Position numbers and translations under genes: made by a program. Of a stretch of DNA of 48,062 nucleotides, positions 11,973 to 28,304 are shown piece after piece (positions within the stretch are counted from its first letter, which is position 1; the number at the start of each line of letters is the position of its first letter). Source of the DNA: Candidatus Dojkabacteria bacterium (GTDB lineage: Archaea; Nanobdellota; Nanobdellia; Pacearchaeales; GW2011-AR1); assembly GCA_017610445.1 (NCBI GenBank), contig JAFCCB010000004.1:1-48062 (forward strand), written 5' to 3'. The notes under the pieces are model-generated. The model was not told where the DNA came from, did not search any database, and worked only from the letters and a program-made list of their open reading frames with translations.

Positions 11973-13394
11973 TCAAATCTTCTTAAACAAAATCTCCCCT
12001 TTCTTAATTTTCTTAATCTTAATTGATTTTTTAATTTCATTAAACTTAATCTTAAATCCAAACTGCTTTGCAATCTTCTCAGAAGTAGAAGGAATAAAAA
12101 CCCAAAGCAAAATCCCAATCACCTTAATACTATCAGCTAATTCATACAAAACTTTCTTATTCTTGCTCTCCCACGGCTTCTTTTTCTGAACATATTCATT
12201 GCAAACATCAATAAATTTAAAAATCAAATCAAGTGCTTTATTTAACTCAAAACCCTCAATCAATCGCTCAATCTCTTTCAGCCTCAATTTTTTCAAAAGT
12301 TTATTCTCACACTTTTCCAAACCATTTTTCTCAGCCAAAGCACTCACTCTTGAAATTAAATTACCAAGTTTATTTGCAAGTTCATTATTGTACCTTGAAA
12401 TTAAAATTTTTTCAGAATAATCAGAATCTTCAAATATAGAACTTCTTAATAAAGAATATCTGACAGCATCACAGCCATATTTCTTAATTAATCCAATCGG
12501 TTCAATCACATTTCCTAAACTTTTGCTTATTTTCTGTCCCCCCAAATTTAAATAACCATGAACTAATAATTTTTTAGGAAGTTTATACCCAGCAGACATT
12601 AAAATCCCAGGCCAAATAACAGAATGAAACCAATTAATTCCTTTTCCAATAACATGGACATCAGCAGGCCAATTCCCATCAGCACCAGAAACATAATTTA
12701 TTAAAGCATCAAACCAAACATAAATCTTAAATTTCTTATCAATTGAAGAATCAATTCCCCAATCCAAACCACTTCTTGAAACACACAAATCCCCCAACTC
12801 TTGGTTTTTCAATCTCGACAAAATTTCATTTTTTCTTTTTTCAGGAATAATATAATTCTCAATAAATTTAATTATTTTATTTTTATATTTGCTTAATTTA
12901 AAAAAATAAGCATCTTCAGAAATCTTTTCAGGAACTTTGTCGTGTTCAGGGCATTTCCCGTCAACTAAATCTTTTTCAGTAATAAATGACTCACAACCAA
13001 CACAATAAAGCCCCTCATATTTTCCTTTGTAAATTTCTCCTTTATCATAAACTTTTTTAAAAATCTCCTGGGCTTTTTTTACATGTTTTTTTTCAGTTGT
13101 TCTGATAAAATCATCATATTTTATGTTCAACTTCTCGCACAATTCAATAAAAATTTTAGAATTTTTATCTACAAATTTCTGAACATCAACCCCTTTTTCT
13201 TTTGCAGCCTGAACATTTTTCTGTGCATTTTCATCAGTCCCAGTTAAAAACCAAACCCTCTCTCCCTTTAACTTATGCCAACGAGCTAAAGCATCAGCTA
13301 TAACTTTCTCAAATGCATGCCCAATATGCGGACGAGCATTTACATAATCAATCGCAGTTGTAATATAAAATTTCTTGCTAACCATAAAAACCAT
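11973..13394 (-). CDS. metG: methionyl-tRNA synthetase (core enzyme without a C-terminal tRNA-binding domain)
   Basis: ARPHIGHAFE (HIGH), KISKSLGN (KMSKS), zinc knuckle CVGCESF...CPEH, and an anticodon-binding helical domain. Confidence 0.9.
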   Translation of the reverse strand: MVFMVSKKFYITTAIDYVNARPHIGHAFEKVIADALARWHKLKGERVWFLTGTDENAQKNVQAAKEKGVDVQKFVDKNSKIFIELCEKLNIKYDDFIRTTEKKHVKKAQEIFKKVYDKGEIYKGKYEGLYCVGCESFITEKDLVDGKCPEHDKVPEKISEDAYFFKLSKYKNKIIKFIENYIIPEKRKNEILSRLKNQELGDLCVSRSGLDWGIDSSIDKKFKIYVWFDALINYVSGADGNWPADVHVIGKGINWFHSVIWPGILMSAGYKLPKKLLVHGYLNLGGQKISKSLGNVIEPIGLIKKYGCDAVRYSLLRSSIFEDSDYSEKILISRYNNELANKLGNLISRVSALAEKNGLEKCENKLLKKLRLKEIERLIEGFELNKALDLIFKFIDVCNEYVQKKKPWESKNKKVLYELADSIKVIGILLWVFIPSTSEKIAKQFGFKIKFNEIKKSIKIKKIKKGEILFKKI

Positions 13395-23725: not shown

Positions 23726-23838
23726 AAAAAGGTTACTAAACATTCTTTTAAGGGATGTAAATGGAAATAAAGTTCTGTTTCCAGGGTGTTCAACGAAATT
23801 TCTAATTCTCCTAAAGTCTAAAGTAAAACAAAAAATAG

Positions 23839-24029
23839 CTAAAATCTCTCTCAGCCATCCCCCGACCACCCAACTCGAGCCCAAGTCTTGTTATTTATAC
23901 TTTAATTTGTCAAGACTTAAACTCTCGCCCCAGTTACGAGGTGTGCGCCGGTTTTCTCTTCAAGAAAGCAGATAGTTGAAAATCAAAGATTTTCAAGATT
24001 AATAATTTCCCCCAAGAAAAGAGACTCGC
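23839..24029 (-). ncRNA. candidate structured RNA / left arm of a long inverted repeat (family unknown)
   Basis: Visibly GC-richer than its surroundings. The ends pair on the minus strand (GAGUCUCUUUU with GAGAGAGAUUU, needing G-U pairs). A 14-bp helix (23877-23890 with 23911-23924) has 3 U-G pairs only on the minus strand. A 9-bp hairpin lies at 23976-23996. Shares sequence blocks with 26827-26944. Confidence 0.4.
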
Positions 24030-24078
24030 GGTTTTTCTGAATGAAAAACAGCTTACTTAACAAGATTAGAAATTTTAT

Positions 24079-24798
24079 TTACCTATAAAATGTTTTATAA
24101 TAATCTTTTTGAGAGAATCCTAATTCTTTTTGAAGATGATTTACAATTTTAAGAATTGCTCCCTCCTTACCATTTAGATGCTCTTTGATGTATTTATACA
24201 ATTGGGAATCTAATTCTTTTATTCTTGGAAGAATATACTTGGTGTGAGGTTTGTAAGTTCTTTTTGCCTTAAAATATATCTCTATGCAATACCAAAATAA
24301 ATCATTTCTTAGATATTCTTTTTGAGTTTTTTCTATATCTCTATCAAAAGCAACCAATTTATCATATAATTTCCATCCATAATAATATATTTCTTTTTTA
24401 GATAATTTAGAGAGTTTACTTTTAAGCACTTTATTTGCTTCTTCTTTTAATTTTTTGGATATTTCGTATCCATAAATACAATCTGAAAAAAATATTATTT
24501 CTGCTGTTGTTCTTTTAAAAGCATTTTTTTCTTCTTTTAATAATCTTTTAACCCATCTTAAAGGGTTTACAAAAAAGGATACTTTAACATTCCTAATTGT
24601 TTTTACTCCTTTTTTGCCACTTTTGCGGCTCTGGGTTATAATAAATATATCAATATCTGAATTTTTCGATAATTTGTTATTGAAATAAGATCCTGTTATT
24701 AAAGCACAAACAATTTTATTTTCTTTTTTTATTTTCTCTAAGAATTCTTGAGAGATTTTTAGATATTTCTTTTTTAGATTATTCATTTTGTATTTCAC
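24079..24798 (-). CDS. Pol-beta-superfamily nucleotidyltransferase with a helical C-terminal domain
   Basis: ALITGSYFNNKLSKNSDIDIFIIT fits hG[GS]x9-13DhDh. The helical C-terminal half resembles aminoglycoside/lincosamide-type NTase architecture. Overlaps the upstream ORF by 20 nt. Confidence 0.6.
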   Translation of the reverse strand: MKYKMNNLKKKYLKISQEFLEKIKKENKIVCALITGSYFNNKLSKNSDIDIFIITQSRKSGKKGVKTIRNVKVSFFVNPLRWVKRLLKEEKNAFKRTTAEIIFFSDCIYGYEISKKLKEEANKVLKSKLSKLSKKEIYYYGWKLYDKLVAFDRDIEKTQKEYLRNDLFWYCIEIYFKAKRTYKPHTKYILPRIKELDSQLYKYIKEHLNGKEGAILKIVNHLQKELGFSQKDYYKTFYR

Positions 24799-25939
24799 CT
24801 ATCCTTTTTGTAGTTAAGGGGAAGATAGGACTTATAGATTTTATCATTTTAAGATATTCTTCAATATCCTCTTTAGTGGTTTTTTCTCCTCTTTCTATTT
24901 TTTTACTTAATTCATAAATTCTACTTCTAAAAATTTCTATAGCCTCAGAAACTTGCATTGTTTCAATCATTTTTTCTATTTCTTCATTCCCTTCTTGATT
25001 ATCTTGGCGGGATTCATAATGTTTTACAAAATGTTTCGCTAAATTGCAAGCCCTATAAATCATCTTTTTACCTTTTATTAAAGTATCTGGATTTACTTCC
25101 ATATCTTCTAAAGAGTTTGTTGGTAGAAGCGCACAATACCTTAAAACATCTGAATCAATAACAGGATTCCTCACACTTTTTTTAATCTCTTCAATTTTCA
25201 TATTTTCTAATCCTCCTGCCAGATTTAAAAACCCATGAGCACATAAATTGCGCGCAAATGGTTCATCAAAAAGTGTGTTCCAAACTACAAAGGGGATAAA
25301 TGTACCTCTTGGAAGGGTTCTACATCCATCAATACCATAATCTGCCGATTCTTCCGAAAATAATGCAGGACTAACTGCTAAATCAAATATAGGATTTATA
25401 CTTTTAATACTATTAGGAATAGGTGTCGCATGTCTTCTTCTTTTAGAAACAGGATAGAGTCCGGTTAGAGTTTTTGTCAAGTCTAACATTCTTTTTCTTA
25501 AATGCAGAGGATTATATCTTACAGATTCTAAGTGTTCTCTCATCCTGGTTTGAGTATATGTTCTTGATAAATCCAGAAAATATTCTCCATTCTGTTCTAC
25601 AATAAAACCTCTTTGTAGCAATTGCATGAAATGTTTTTGGGAATTTTGTCGGGATTTTTCATCTGTATCTCTATAAGAAGTATATGATTCTTCAATACCA
25701 AAAAAGGATAGTTCTCTTCCCATGCCTTGTTCTGATATTTCTATTTGTTTTTCTAATTCCCCCCTATCTAAATGATTCACTCTTTTTCCTTGATGATTCC
25801 AAGAAGGGTAAAAATATTGTATTTTTTCCCCTTTAGATTGCATATGCCTAGCTATTACATCATTCCATACAACATTTACTCCATGCCCAAAAACTAAGTT
25901 TTGTTTTGAGCTTATTATGGCTGGCGAGTAAAACTTCAT
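24779..25939 (-). CDS. MetRS-like class I aaRS paralog with eroded HIGH and KMSKS motifs
   Basis: Collinear similarity to the MetRS in this window: KFY..., GH, D-IAR...KGE, VSKR/VSRS, FDLAV/FDALI, HGFLNLAGG/HGYLNLGGQ, VLRYCALL/AVRYSLL. It has LVFGH instead of PHIGH, ENMKI instead of KISKS, and no zinc knuckle. Confidence 0.6.
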   Translation of the reverse strand: MKFYSPAIISSKQNLVFGHGVNVVWNDVIARHMQSKGEKIQYFYPSWNHQGKRVNHLDRGELEKQIEISEQGMGRELSFFGIEESYTSYRDTDEKSRQNSQKHFMQLLQRGFIVEQNGEYFLDLSRTYTQTRMREHLESVRYNPLHLRKRMLDLTKTLTGLYPVSKRRRHATPIPNSIKSINPIFDLAVSPALFSEESADYGIDGCRTLPRGTFIPFVVWNTLFDEPFARNLCAHGFLNLAGGLENMKIEEIKKSVRNPVIDSDVLRYCALLPTNSLEDMEVNPDTLIKGKKMIYRACNLAKHFVKHYESRQDNQEGNEEIEKMIETMQVSEAIEIFRSRIYELSKKIERGEKTTKEDIEEYLKMIKSISPIFPLTTKRIGEIQNE

Positions 25940-26023
25940 AAAAATGCATTAATTAGAGGTTTTATAAATTCTTTTGTTTAATTATTTAGTAAAGATTAAA
26001 AACCACCAATCTTTATTAACTGT

Positions 26024-26776
26024 ATGGTTATGCCTATATTAAAATCATATTATGGAAAAATATTTTTTGAGTTTTTAACTCATAAAGATAAACGTGACAC
26101 TATAATCCTCTTAGCCGGATTTCCAGGTTCTAACCAAAAAGACGAAATGATGTACTTTTTTTATGAAAAAGGGTTCAATGTGTTTTTCCCTAGATTTAAA
26201 GGAACTTTTCAAAGCGAAGGAAAATTTCTAGAAACTAATCTTGTTGATGATTTATTATTTTTTATAAAAGAGCTAAAAAAAGTACAGGCTAAAAATCTTT
26301 GGGATATGAGTAAAGTGCATTTTAAAATTGGAAAAATCAATGTGGTCGGAGATAGTTTTAGTGGAGCAATTGCCTGCGGATTATGCGCTTGTTCAGAGGA
26401 TATTTCTAAGATTATTTTGGCTTCTCCAGTATTAGATTATAAAAAACATAATATTGATGGAGACGAACAAGATTTAGATGCTTTAACTTTATTTGTTAAG
26501 AGAGCATATAAGAATCTATATAGGTATTCTTTTAATTCCTTACAGAAAGAAATAAATAAGTTCAAAGAAATTTCTCCTGATTTTTATTTAAAATTGTTGA
26601 ATAAGCCAATCTTATTGTTTCATGACCCCAATGATAGAGCGGTTTCAATAAGACATAGTAAAATTCTCTTTGGAAATATGAAAAATTGCAAGATAATTAA
26701 AACAAATACAGGACATGGGTTTTGCAGGGTATTGGATAAATATTCTAATTTGATTCTTGATTTTCTGAAAGATTAA
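26024..26776 (+). CDS. alpha/beta-fold hydrolase
   Basis: Nucleophile elbow VVGDSFSGAIA (GxSxG), a later HDPNDRAV acid and TGHGF histidine in canonical order. Confidence 0.65.
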   Translation: MVMPILKSYYGKIFFEFLTHKDKRDTIILLAGFPGSNQKDEMMYFFYEKGFNVFFPRFKGTFQSEGKFLETNLVDDLLFFIKELKKVQAKNLWDMSKVHFKIGKINVVGDSFSGAIACGLCACSEDISKIILASPVLDYKKHNIDGDEQDLDALTLFVKRAYKNLYRYSFNSLQKEINKFKEISPDFYLKLLNKPILLFHDPNDRAVSIRHSKILFGNMKNCKIIKTNTGHGFCRVLDKYSNLILDFLKD

Positions 26777-26826
26777 CAATAAACTTTTACAATCTTTACA
26801 TTCTTCTTTTAGAAAAAGATGCAAAA

Positions 26827-26944
26827 GCGAGTCTCTTTTCCCAGCCCAAAATCTTCTTTCTTAAAAAGAAAGAAGCAAAGAAGGGCACGCACCTCAAATT
26901 TAATGGGATGGCTAAAAGCCCACCTGAACTAAGAGAGATTTTAG
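26827..26944 (+). ncRNA. candidate structured RNA / right arm of the long inverted repeat (paralog of 23839-24029)
   Basis: Starts gcgagtctcttttc and ends gagagattttag, the exact reverse complements of the left-arm cores. The ends pair (11 bp with G-U). 8-bp hairpin cttctttc-ttaaaaa-gaaagaag. Shares the ggcacgcacctc and gggatggct blocks. Confidence 0.4.
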
Positions 26945-27014
26945 AAATATAAAGACGGAGAATTAGAAACTCAAGCCACATTGCATTCTCGCCTACGGCT
27001 CGGGTCGTTGAATA

Positions 27015-27110
27015 GGGGATAAAGAGTTCGGCTCCTGCAGAGCCTCTCCCAAATTTTTTTCTCAGCCAGTTCGCTATCGCTCACGGGAGAAATTAACTTT
27101 CCTTATCCCC
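27015..27110. other. GC-rich three-helix structured element (strand and function unknown)
   Basis: Closing helix ggggataa/ttatcccc (27015-27022 with 27103-27110), hairpin ggctc-ctgca-gagcc (27030-27044), helix tctccc/gggaga (27045-27050 with 27085-27090). Confidence 0.3.
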
Positions 27111-27124
27111 AATGTTAAACAAAA

Positions 27125-27482
27125 TTGAAAAAGAAAAGAGCCGAGAGAGAGATACTTCGCAGTAGGAAGATTTACCTTAGGGTGCATTACACTTACAGTA
27201 GGTATTTTTTGTATTGGGGCAATTATTTTCCGAATGCTGATGTAATCAGCTTAAATCCCTTTGGCAATAGAATTATACAAAAAAGGATAGCACTTATTCC
27301 AGTAATCCAAAATAGGATGCTTCCTTTTTCTGCCAAAGAGAATACAGAAAATAAACCAATAACAATACCTAGAAACTGCAAAGTTTCATTAGTTAAATCT
27401 TTCATATTTCTTTTACCTCTCAGTAAAAGAAAGGGCTGATTAGCTTAATAGCTTTTCGGCTCTTTTTTCTACACTTTTTCAA
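27125..27482. repeat. inverted repeat pair bracketing a micro-ORF
   Basis: The left arm ttgaaaaagaaaagagccga (27125-27144) is the reverse complement of 27456-27466 plus 27474-27482, which carry a 7-nt insertion between them. The core gaaaagagcc resembles the cassette core gaaaagagac at 24016. Confidence 0.6.
27223..27405 (-). CDS. small membrane protein (two TM helices), hypothetical
   Basis: 60-aa ORF, FLGIVIGLFSVFSLA and ILFWITGISAILFCIILL. More plausible than the overlapping plus-strand 104-aa ORF. Confidence 0.3.
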   Translation of the reverse strand: MKDLTNETLQFLGIVIGLFSVFSLAEKGSILFWITGISAILFCIILLPKGFKLITSAFGK

Positions 27483-27584
27483 CTATCGTTTAACAGCAGA
27501 TAAAAAGTAAAATTCTTGCAGAATTTTTCCAAATTCGCCTTTGGCGAACTTTTTTTAATCTTAATGTTAAATCTAAATTCATAT

Positions 27585-27987
27585 CTAAATTAAAGAAATA
27601 GCCTCATCAGGCCTAATTATTTTTATCCTTTGATATTCTTTCAAGTTCAATAAATGCTTATCTTGACTAATAATTAAATCTGCATTTCCTGTTATTCCAG
27701 CTTCAAGAAATTTATTATCATCTAAATCATCTTTTATCACATTAATTTTTATAGTTGGTTCTACCATAATTAAATTTTCAATAATAATGTTTTTCCATTC
27801 ATATATCATTTCTTTTGGCATTTGAATTTTAAAATTTAATAGTGTTTTAATTAATTCATCAATAATTTCCATAGAACTAACTAAATCAATTTTTCTTTCT
27901 CTCCATTTTTCTATTATCTTAGAACAGAAATTACCTTTCCAGAAGATTCCTGATACAAATACATTTGTAATCTAAAACTAATCTCAT
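27585..27987 (-). pseudogene. PIN-domain toxin, interrupted by a 1-nt insertion after codon 6
   Basis: ATG at 27987 reads MRLVLD. Skipping one T at about 27969-27970 continues as TNVFVSGIFWKGNFCSKIIEKW...ISQDKHLLNL, a PIN fold with the D-T-N-V acidic motif at the break point. Confidence 0.6.
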
Positions 27988-28091: not shown

Positions 28092-28304
28092 TTAATTCTT
28101 TCTTTTTTGCAAATTCTCTTGTTTTTTAAGTAGTTTATTAATTCCACTAAAAGAAGGCATTTCCAATTTTTTTAATACTATTGTATTATTCTCCCCAATA
28201 ACTACAAACTTTTCTCCTGCATTAATTTTAAGTCTTTCTCTTAAATTTTGCGGAATAACAACCTGCCCTCTTGAACTAATACTTGTTATTTCAATATTTT
28301 CCAT
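28092..28304 (-). CDS. AbrB/SpoVT-family antitoxin (the C-terminal tail probably frameshifted)
   Basis: SSRGQVVIPQNLRERLKINAGEKFVV is a SpoVT-AbrB swapped-hairpin domain. One more A in the A6 run (28122-28127) would continue as TREFAKKKELKQSDIEEAIKNTRKKSKNLL down to 28030. Confidence 0.65.
   Translation of the reverse strand: MENIEITSISSRGQVVIPQNLRERLKINAGEKFVVIGENNTIVLKKLEMPSFSGINKLLKKQENLQKRKN

Follow-up and report, generated by a model that had tools for sequence, protein, structure and literature searches.

What does a methionyl-tRNA synthetase (MetRS) homolog do once it has lost the motifs with which class I synthetases activate their substrates, and why does its gene overlap that of a nucleotidyltransferase (NTase)? 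The question is raised by a three-gene cassette in a 48,062-nucleotide stretch of archaeal DNA, here called the window (contig JAFCCB010000004.1 of assembly GCA_017610445.1). The cassette encodes a 386-aa MetRS-like paralog (24779..25939, minus strand), a Pol-beta-superfamily NTase (24079..24786, minus strand; 235 aa from an ATG, or 239 aa from a GTG at 24798), and an esterase-like alpha/beta-fold serine hydrolase of 250 aa (26024..26776, plus strand). An earlier note made from the sequence alone had singled out these three open reading frames (ORFs), all of which are found in the ORF list where it placed them, and had proposed that they form a tRNA-directed module. The analysis described here strongly supports a functional paralog coupled to its NTase neighbour, and tentatively favours a pathway acting on a nucleotide-linked small molecule independently of tRNA. 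Loci compared with the window carry L numbers and representative proteins carry P numbers.

A derived MetRS homolog under purifying selection

The 386-aa protein is a real, distant, and highly derived MetRS homolog. Pfam tRNA-synt_1g matches residues 13-124 with 24.9 bits, passing its cut-off weakly, and NCBIfam returns fragments of metG and valyl-tRNA synthetase (ValRS). BLASTP aligns the post-KMSKS and helical region with the window's own MetRS (E=4e-6), and hhalign relates MetRS to both the window-subfamily profile (95% probability, 361 columns) and the broad-family profile (98.7%, 369 columns, E=4e-16). An AlphaFold2 model (predicted local distance difference test (pLDDT) 83, predicted TM score 0.84) was compared with the PDB by Foldseek, and the best 50 matches are all MetRS (E ~1e-12, TM 0.65-0.76). 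The collinearity of ORF 24779-25939 with the window MetRS, first pointed out in the earlier note, is backed by these comparisons, and the profile and fold comparisons which that note suggested recover a MetRS fold. An origin from ValRS or isoleucyl-tRNA synthetase was considered, as the broad-family hidden Markov model ranked the window ValRS above MetRS. This was rejected because the ValRS alignment covers no more than the second half (251 columns, E=2e-9), whereas MetRS aligns globally.

Residues were mapped to E. coli MetRS through a HMMER alignment, and the roles of HIGH, D52, N391, R395, W461, and the adenosine contacts are assumed to be those known from E. coli and A. aeolicus MetRS. The protein consists of a Rossmann core, a CP domain reduced to about 60 residues, and a short helical C-terminal domain. 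The HIGH motif had been described as eroded, which holds for its first histidine (E. coli H21), replaced at position 16 by V, F, L, S, I, or K within the subfamily, but not for G18-H19, equivalent to G23-H24, which are invariant. E27 is replaced by an invariant asparagine, N22. The aspartate presumed to anchor the alpha-amino group, D52, is lost to W47, an aromatic residue or leucine family-wide, while the adjoining A53 corresponds to N48, the sole residue invariant in all 53 diverse sequences. H323-G324 are retained as H235-G236, and the stretch that follows is variable with indels and has no KMSKS-like motif in the window subfamily. The zinc knuckle is absent. Loss of the KMSKS loop and of the zinc-knuckle insertion was therefore correctly read at the outset. 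Other retained features are D27, PSWNHQGK (46-52), NPIFDLAVSP (182-191), and D204, and the window subfamily shares the invariant polar blocks GHG.N.VW.D, PSWNHQGK, NPIFDLAVSP, DY.IDG, HG, and SD..R.

The anticodon-binding helical domain is retained as a fold, as had been claimed, but it is shorter than that of MetRS, has no net charge, and has not kept the residues that read the anticodon. N391 is partly retained as N299, within an N-L-x-K helix motif. R395 maps to the H303 position, occupied by H, Y, or F, and W461 maps to the KIERGEK region; neither is conserved. The paralog as a whole has a net charge of +2 and its helical domain 0, compared with +27 for the MetRS of the same genome (+16 in the anticodon domain) and +34 for ValRS.

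Purifying selection acts on every gene of the cassette. Compared with three orthologs, the ratio of non-synonymous to synonymous substitution (dN/dS) is 0.19-0.28 for the paralog, 0.11-0.30 for the NTase, and 0.09-0.16 for the hydrolase. Because of this ratio, and of the dozens of invariant polar residues clustered at class I active-site positions, the paralog is taken to be functional and not decaying. The idea that it is a MetRS pseudogene lying by chance beside unrelated genes, prompted by its lost signature motifs and weak Pfam scores, is refuted by that selection, by an ORF intact in all homologs, by about 60 representative clusters with family-specific conserved motifs, and by a recurring neighbourhood with gene fusions.

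The nucleotidyltransferase and the hydrolase

The NTase matches Pfam Polbeta and NTP_transf_2, not AbiEii, and carries the motif G32-S33...D44-x-D46, in which G32-S33, D44, and D46 are invariant among homologs. Its model (pLDDT 71) comprises an N-terminal alpha/beta Pol-beta domain and helices 107-233, in agreement with the original description of a Pol-beta NTase with a helical domain. The architecture resembles that of kanamycin NTase (KNTase): the best fold matches are KNTase/ANT(4'), the NTase-like protein 3c18, Hailong HalB, LinB, and ANT(9), with 1kny, 6p06, and 3jyy among the best. Matches to KNTase/LinB/ANT(9)-type structures reach E=1e-5 in Foldseek at a TM of ~0.4 and 12-16% identity, from a model of moderate confidence. 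Fold matches to CCA-adding enzymes, MNT, and Tam41 are weak, and the NCBIfam MntA model scores 19 bits against a cut-off of 60. No relationship to the AbiEii protein of L015 was detected by hhalign (0.7% probability), and there is no HEPN gene beside the NTase at the locus. The window NTase is very basic, with a net charge of +28 to +30. Net charge was tried as a signal of nucleic-acid binding by the partner NTases and dropped, as basic charge is not consistent across loci.

The NTase and paralog genes meet within 24779..24799 on the minus strand. An overlap of 20 nt had been reported; the overlap exists, but its length holds only for the GTG start. As NTase homologs are 233-235 aa long, the ATG at 24786 is the likelier start, giving an 8-nt stop/start overlap, ATGAATAA (24779-24786). 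A GGTGA Shine-Dalgarno-like element lies upstream of this ATG at 24795-24799. Together the overlap and this element suggest translational coupling, and similar paralog/NTase overlaps occur in L001, L007, L010, and L011. On a separate 1.5-kb JGI contig, P0021 is a 378-aa fusion of a Nudix hydrolase and an NTase, the latter part 42% identical to the window NTase. This fusion hints that the NTase product may be a nucleoside-diphosphate-linked compound.

The hydrolase is divergent in orientation, as first described, and has an intact catalytic triad. S111, within G-D-S-F-S-G, and D204 are invariant among nine orthologs, and H231 is found in nearly all. Compared with PDB as a profile, its nearest matches are cinnamoyl and feruloyl esterases, an MHETase-like enzyme, and S33 hydrolases, so that its nearest solved relatives are small-substrate carboxylesterases. 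Conservation is far stronger in the hydrolase than in the paralog, with about 46% against about 19% identity between the window and L026. The 84-bp intergenic region that separates the two divergent genes (25940..26023) contains the palindrome TTTATAAA at 25961-25968, ~22 nt upstream of the paralog start codon, plausibly an archaeal TATA box for a leaderless transcript.

Extent of the family and its gene neighbourhood

A word-indexed search found 14 clusters of the paralog family. An exhaustive profile search recovered 91 representatives; full-length proteins (370-400 aa) account for about 60 of these, and canonical synthetases come up in the tail only. A census of motifs distinguishes at least five subfamilies. 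The window group is defined by GHG.N, PSWNHQGK, and HG with no KMSKS; the others are the GQ group (P0028-P0030), a group that has a zinc knuckle and RMSK/RMSN remnants (P0032-P0037), the large "NPPIGIY" group, and a "PC-MPK" group with H.GN and an intact (K/R/P)MSKH. The first histidine of HIGH, as H.GN, together with (K/R/P)MSKH is kept in P0045, P0046, P0049, P0052, P0058, P0060, P0067, P0079, and P0089. From these motifs, members of the "PC-MPK" group may still use ATP directly and activate a substrate. Public annotation gives the family no meaningful names; its members are unannotated or automatically named "hypothetical" or "MetRS".

Gene context was tallied over 21 distinct informative loci from five subfamilies. 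The paralog abuts an NTase in about 20 of these, and a hydrolase ortholog or fused hydrolase domain is found in about 16. The association with the NTase, which the earlier note recognised might prove peculiar to this DNA, is thus conserved widely. Six loci of the window subfamily carry the full trio of paralog, overlapping Pol-beta NTase, and hydrolase (the window, L016, L001, L007, L010, and L011) at 44-89% identity, with different flanks and the hydrolase on either side. In a sister group (L004, L013, L019), a convergent 475-490-aa protein fuses an N-terminal Pol-beta NTase to a C-terminal hydrolase homologous to that of the window (E=6e-21).

The NTase itself is not always of the same fold. 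The gene directly downstream in L020-L024, L027, and L030 encodes a MobA-like NTP_transf_3 (GT-A) enzyme, the partner in the largest subfamily, which in L022 and L030 is fused to an alpha/beta-hydrolase domain. A Pol-beta NTase lies beside the paralog in L028, and a second Pol-beta-like partner of 307-310 aa is shared by L026 (7957-8880) and L031 (4325-5257; mutual E=3.5e-69). Members of this type have no significant Pfam match; they share an N-terminal extension and carry a G[SG]...D.D motif. In L014 (1705-2700), the protein encoded upstream, with an overlap and an apparent GG...D.D motif, possibly belongs to the same family (307-331 aa). In L015, the distant relative P0037 is flanked by an AbiEii NTase and an orthologous hydrolase (E=2e-32). 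The AbiEii gene there is paired with one for DUF5674 (283-1297) next to this zinc-knuckle member, and the two may be an unrelated toxin-antitoxin pair instead of the NTase of the module.

A search starting from the hydrolase returned three long contigs, two of which have the paralog and NTase nearby and one of which does not (L032). The paralog-NTase pair is therefore the tight core, with the esterase a frequent but not obligate third member. Fusions of NTase and hydrolase appear to have arisen at least twice, independently. These conserved neighbourhoods, overlapping genes, and fusions bear out the proposal that the paralog is functionally coupled to the NTase with the hydrolase as third member.

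Further genes surround this core in individual loci. Phosphatases of the His_Phos_1 and HAD types neighbour the module in L001 and a His_Phos_1 in L021, where a further neighbour has an APH/choline-kinase-type motif (by motif reading only). In L022 (3211-8383) and L030 (6001-11956), an operon encodes an HDAC-like deacetylase, a transketolase, the MetRS-like protein, and the MobA-like NTase::alpha/beta-hydrolase fusion. L030 also has a stand-alone hydrolase ortholog convergent to this operon and a sugar-nucleotide epimerase nearby, and a GT2 glycosyltransferase occurs near some family members.

Two other associations were observed. A Peptidase_S66 gene (LD-carboxypeptidase/MccF family) adjoins the module in L011 (6585-7574) and L012 (3220-4209), in one lineage only; MccF-type enzymes cleave aminoacyl-nucleotide antibiotics. 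In three loci (L007, L009, L010), genes for the TruB pseudouridine synthase and a SPOUT protein (Methyltrn_RNA_2) are found close to the module, on differing sides, reflecting either conserved local synteny or insertion of the cassette at differing points of one region.

A possible tRNA-independent pathway

Judged by the alignment, the paralog appears to keep that half of the class I active site which binds the nucleoside (G18-H19, N22, D204, H235-G236) and to have lost both the stabilisers of pyrophosphate release (the first His of HIGH and KMSKS) and the aspartate that anchors the alpha-amino group. The retained residues correspond to what we take to be the adenosine contacts of MetRS, and the lost ones presumably act on the triphosphate and amino group. 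Because the former are kept and the latter lost, a scheme in which the NTase, the paralog, and the esterase act in succession suggests itself. The NTase would use a nucleoside triphosphate to load a nucleoside monophosphate (NMP) onto a small substrate, at either a hydroxyl or a phosphoryl group. The MetRS-derived protein would bind this nucleotide-linked intermediate and perform or chaperone a transfer resembling what a synthetase does in its second half-reaction. The product, probably an ester, would then be hydrolysed or transferred by the serine esterase. We infer the class of substrate, the order of the steps, and the absence of tRNA, and hold this three-enzyme, tRNA-independent pathway as a tentative explanation that stops short of even chances.

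Gene context points in the same direction. Unrelated NTase folds occupying one position, two independent NTase::esterase fusions, and kinase, phosphatase, and Nudix neighbours argue for a small nucleotide-linked intermediate and not RNA, as displacement by a non-homologous NTase would be expected of a generic NMP transfer to a small acceptor. The neighbouring genes, namely those with the kinase motif, the phosphatases, Nudix, HDAC-like deacetylase, transketolase, and epimerase, are consistent with small-molecule metabolism. The best structural matches of the modelled NTase (ANT(4')/KNTase, LinB, ANT(9)) also count towards a small-molecule substrate, as does the hydrolase, which is orthologous across subfamilies as far as L015 and whose relatives act on small substrates. 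The low charge of the paralog and its helical domain and the unconserved R395 and W461 equivalents argue, indirectly, against tRNA binding, as does the lack of a consistently basic charge among the partner NTases. A precedent exists in the MetRS-like hydrazine synthetases, which esterify a small molecule without tRNA (PMC8664883). The small-molecule ligase-type role that the earlier note held as its alternative fits the evidence better than the tRNA mechanism it preferred.

Several points weigh against such a pathway. Pol-beta and MobA-like NTases usually differ in their acceptor nucleophile, hydroxyl versus phosphate, so a single shared intermediate is not guaranteed; this objection is tempered by Tam41, which works on a phosphate acceptor although its fold is Pol-beta. 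The NTase model is of moderate confidence only (pLDDT 71, TM about 0.4). The paralog may still bind RNA, as the helical anticodon-domain fold and N-L-x-K helix motif are kept, and the window NTase has a strongly positive charge (+28 to +30), though its counterparts elsewhere are inconsistent in this respect. The hydrolase is also found without the other two genes (L032), the AbiEii gene beside P0037 may be an unrelated toxin-antitoxin gene, and a regulatory, non-catalytic paralog would explain the same gene contexts.

A more specific form of the pathway is a split synthetase-like ligase, which we regard with considerable doubt. The activation step, for which class I synthetases use HIGH and KMSKS, would have moved to a separate NTase of any fold, leaving the paralog with no more than the nucleoside pocket and the half-reaction of transfer. 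The trio, esterase included, would build or remodel an esterified nucleotide-derived metabolite specific to DPANN archaea, having spread on a small cassette bounded by inverted repeats.

Cassette boundaries and setting

At the DNA level, the stretch 23789-26971, which comprises the cassette with its flanks, is 89% identical to positions 4985-8092 of L016, from a Nanoarchaeota metagenome-assembled genome. The sole other DNA-level match between the window and L016 is the MCM gene, at 64% identity and in a different relative position. Inverted repeats lie where the homology stops, on the right at about 26971. The L016 repeat is about 95 nt long, of which 54 nt form a near-perfect core, and scores 104 against a shuffle maximum of 39, whereas the window copy is degenerate, scoring 38 against 27. 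The cassette had been called repeat-bounded, and this is clear in L016 and still detectable in the window. The left terminal repeat (23799..23943) consists of the blocks 23799-23811, 23839-23871, and 23926-23943, and the degenerate right copy lies at 26905..26969. A 54-nt insertion (23872-23925) interrupts the left repeat, a segment absent from L016.

From these features the cassette looks like a non-autonomous mobile or recently transferred unit that moves horizontally. It contains no transposase. In L001 the hydrolase has been relocated to the other side of the paralog-NTase pair. No further copies of the flanking repeat were found elsewhere in the window or in the compared loci, and inverted repeats are seen for the window/L016 pair only. 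The repeat was also considered as a multi-copy element and rejected, as no copies were found and a 16-mer scan of viral contigs gave two matches that were judged to be chance. The nearest relatives of the cassette come from genome bins of Nanoarchaeota, Woesearchaeota, and Marsarchaeota.

The window is low in GC (~29%) and otherwise encodes TBP, MCM, DNA ligase, RPA, aIF2-beta, ValRS, and a genuine 473-aa MetRS (11973-13394, minus strand), a gene content that suggests a DPANN-type archaeon as its source. To the right of the hydrolase, 26777-27584 is a stretch of ~800 bp without a convincing ORF and with locally higher GC, which contains the right inverted repeat. An Rfam scan of the GC-richer flanks, including this stretch, gave nothing at the gathering threshold and chance-level microRNA matches at E<1, and the window tRNAs are all situated away from the cassette flanks. 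Outside the right repeat lie a PIN-domain ORF (27585-27872, minus strand) and a MazE/AbrB-type antitoxin ORF (28092-28304, minus strand). The PIN ORF is short (95 aa) and aligns with no more than the C-terminal part of the PIN model.

Alternative explanations

The alternative that survives best is a regulatory or scaffolding pseudo-synthetase, in which the paralog no longer has a catalytic role. It would bind a ligand, either a nucleoside or some metabolite related to methionine, and would control or target the coupled NTase, much as HisZ regulates HisG. It would account for the loss of both class I activation signature elements and for the overlapping genes, which imply stoichiometric co-production. 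The much faster evolution of the paralog relative to the hydrolase (~19% vs ~46% identity, window vs L026) is also expected of a specificity or regulatory subunit. However, the residues that lined the former active site (S46, W47, N48, H49, Q50, K52, D186, S190, D204, and H235) are conserved beyond the usual need of ligand sensing. The exchange of the NTase partner between unrelated folds is hard to square with a specific regulatory interface, and the subfamilies that keep H.GN and MSKH are, by their motifs, probably still catalytic. A regulatory role of this kind is considered unlikely.

Another alternative is a mobile detoxification or resistance cassette directed at an antibiotic that mimics a nucleoside or an aminoacyl-adenylate, which the paralog would sequester or present, the NTase nucleotidylate, and the esterase cleave. 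Mobility fits this idea, given the inverted-repeat bounds and a DNA identity of 89% compared with 64% for MCM, at a different position in each genome, as does the sporadic, accessory distribution. The resemblance of the NTase to aminoglycoside and lincosamide resistance NTases and the S66 (MccF-family) peptidase adjoining the module in L011 and L012 would also be in keeping with resistance. Yet the MobA-like NTP transferase, kinase, transketolase, HDAC-like, and epimerase neighbours are, as we understand such genes, typical of biosynthesis or salvage, there is no associated transporter, and the inverted repeats are confined to the window and L016. Resistance is thus rather improbable as an explanation. 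A role in anti-phage defence was also examined and set aside, as PADLOC gave only weak generic NTase matches (E 1e-4 or weaker for the window proteins) and nothing for the paralog or hydrolase.

The mechanism proposed in the earlier note is that the paralog presents tRNA by means of its anticodon-domain fold, the NTase nucleotidylates the acceptor end or another site, and the hydrolase reverses or edits the product. The retained helical domain, in which an N-L-x-K helix is conserved where E. coli MetRS has N391, would suit such a role, as would the highly basic window NTase and the AbiEii/MenT-family NTase beside the distant relative P0037. TruB/SPOUT RNA-modification genes near the module in L007, L009, and L010 could be added, but translation genes are ubiquitous in such small genomes and their proximity carries little weight. 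Against this, the paralog has unconserved R395/W461 equivalents, a truncated CP domain, and no net positive charge of note (+2), and the hydrolase resembles small-substrate esterases. The nucleotidylation of tRNA was argued by analogy to MenT and MNT, an analogy that finds no support, as the window NTase is KNTase-like and unrelated to AbiEii (0.7%), with weak matches to CCA-adding enzymes and MNT. In most distant loci, including the largest subfamily, MobA-like NTases substitute for it, and to our knowledge this GT-A fold acts on small phospho-compounds only. No defence or toxin-antitoxin model matches the module. A tRNA-directed function is quite improbable on this evidence.

Significance and comparison with known systems

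Synthetase paralogs outside translation, including MshC, GluQRS, cyclodipeptide synthases, hydrazine synthetases, and HisZ, have each revealed new chemistry. The nearest characterised relatives are hydrazine synthetases and MshC, both of which keep both signature motifs, and the cassette family had not been described in the literature found. No description of the DPANN family or of a synthetase-like/NTase/esterase module was found, and the family is not mentioned in two reviews (PMC6393860, PMC9437257) or in a paper on DPANN protein families (PMC9258230). It would be the first MetRS-derived lineage to have lost both class I signature motifs and nevertheless be under selection, and the first nearly always tied to a stand-alone NTase, most loci also carrying an esterase. 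Should the split-ligase reading hold, the half-reactions of a synthetase would be separable between proteins, and an undescribed metabolite would exist in DPANN archaea, which are host-dependent and whose genomes are mostly dark matter. On the practical side, estimates of genome completeness that rely on MetRS as a single-copy marker can count such genes by mistake.

Compared with canonical MetRS, the paralog shares the class I Rossmann fold, the MetRS-type CP insertion, and the helical anticodon domain, but is without the first His of HIGH, the KMSKS loop, an Asp52 equivalent, and conserved R395/W461 readers. Among NTases, KNTase/ANT(4'), LinB, and ANT(9) transfer NMP to a hydroxyl of a small molecule, and share with the window NTase a Pol-beta domain with GS...DxD and a C-terminal helical substrate domain. 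They differ in acting alone as resistance determinants, uncoupled from any synthetase paralog, and the similarity is limited to 12-16% identity and a TM of ~0.4. MenT toxins, which extend tRNA acceptor ends (PMC10435456, PMC11541572), and the AbiEii and MNT-HEPN systems are likewise built on Pol-beta-superfamily NTases, and one distant family member has an AbiEii gene as its neighbour. However, AbiEii has no detectable relation to the window NTase, whose module has no antitoxin partner and in most distant loci uses GT-A NTases in its place. MNT-HEPN systems pair a minimal NTase of ~100-140 aa with a HEPN RNase, whereas the window NTase is a two-domain protein of 235 aa with no HEPN neighbour.

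Other synthetase paralogs offer partial parallels, with MshC, HisZ, cyclodipeptide synthases, and GluQRS being analogies and not relatives by origin. HisZ, a HisRS paralog without aminoacylation activity that serves as a subunit of a nucleotide-using enzyme, resembles the pseudo-synthetase idea. It is class II, though, its partner is the phosphoribosyltransferase HisG with no esterase, and the active-site positions of the present family are strongly conserved. Cyclodipeptide synthases likewise have a class I synthetase-like fold that has lost both ATP-binding signature motifs and uses the retained pocket for transfer, but they are of class Ic (TyrRS/TrpRS-like) origin, have no anticodon domain and no NTase or hydrolase partners, and use aminoacyl-tRNA substrates. 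MshC, the Cys:GlcN-Ins ligase, is a class I synthetase paralog that ligates a small-molecule acceptor in a pathway with a glycosyltransferase, a phosphatase, and a deacetylase, and similar genes (GT2, His_Phos_1/HAD, HDAC-like) lie near some family members. It differs in being derived from CysRS. MshC retains both signature motifs and ATP-dependent activation, and we know of no NTase or esterase partner for it.

The hydrazine synthetases PyrN, Spb40, and Tri28 use a MetRS-like domain to activate an amino acid with ATP and esterify it onto N6-hydroxylysine without tRNA (PMC8664883). These proteins have HLGH and, in the place of KMSKS, KFSTG; they carry one or two zinc clusters, are about 550 aa long, and have cupin and N-hydroxylase partners (bioRxiv 10.1101/2025.08.22.671884). 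No cupin or lysine/ornithine N-hydroxylase was found in the about 21 loci examined, and no hydrazine synthetase structure is among the top fold or sequence matches of the paralog. Hydrazine synthetases are bacterial, bind zinc, and have intact motifs, whereas the window protein is a 386-aa DPANN protein without zinc that has lost the first His and KMSKS and is partnered by an NTase and an esterase. By analogy, the two would nonetheless share the recruitment of a MetRS fold to small-molecule chemistry with a dedicated partner, to which it is sometimes fused (PMC8664883; bioRxiv 10.1101/2025.08.22.671884).

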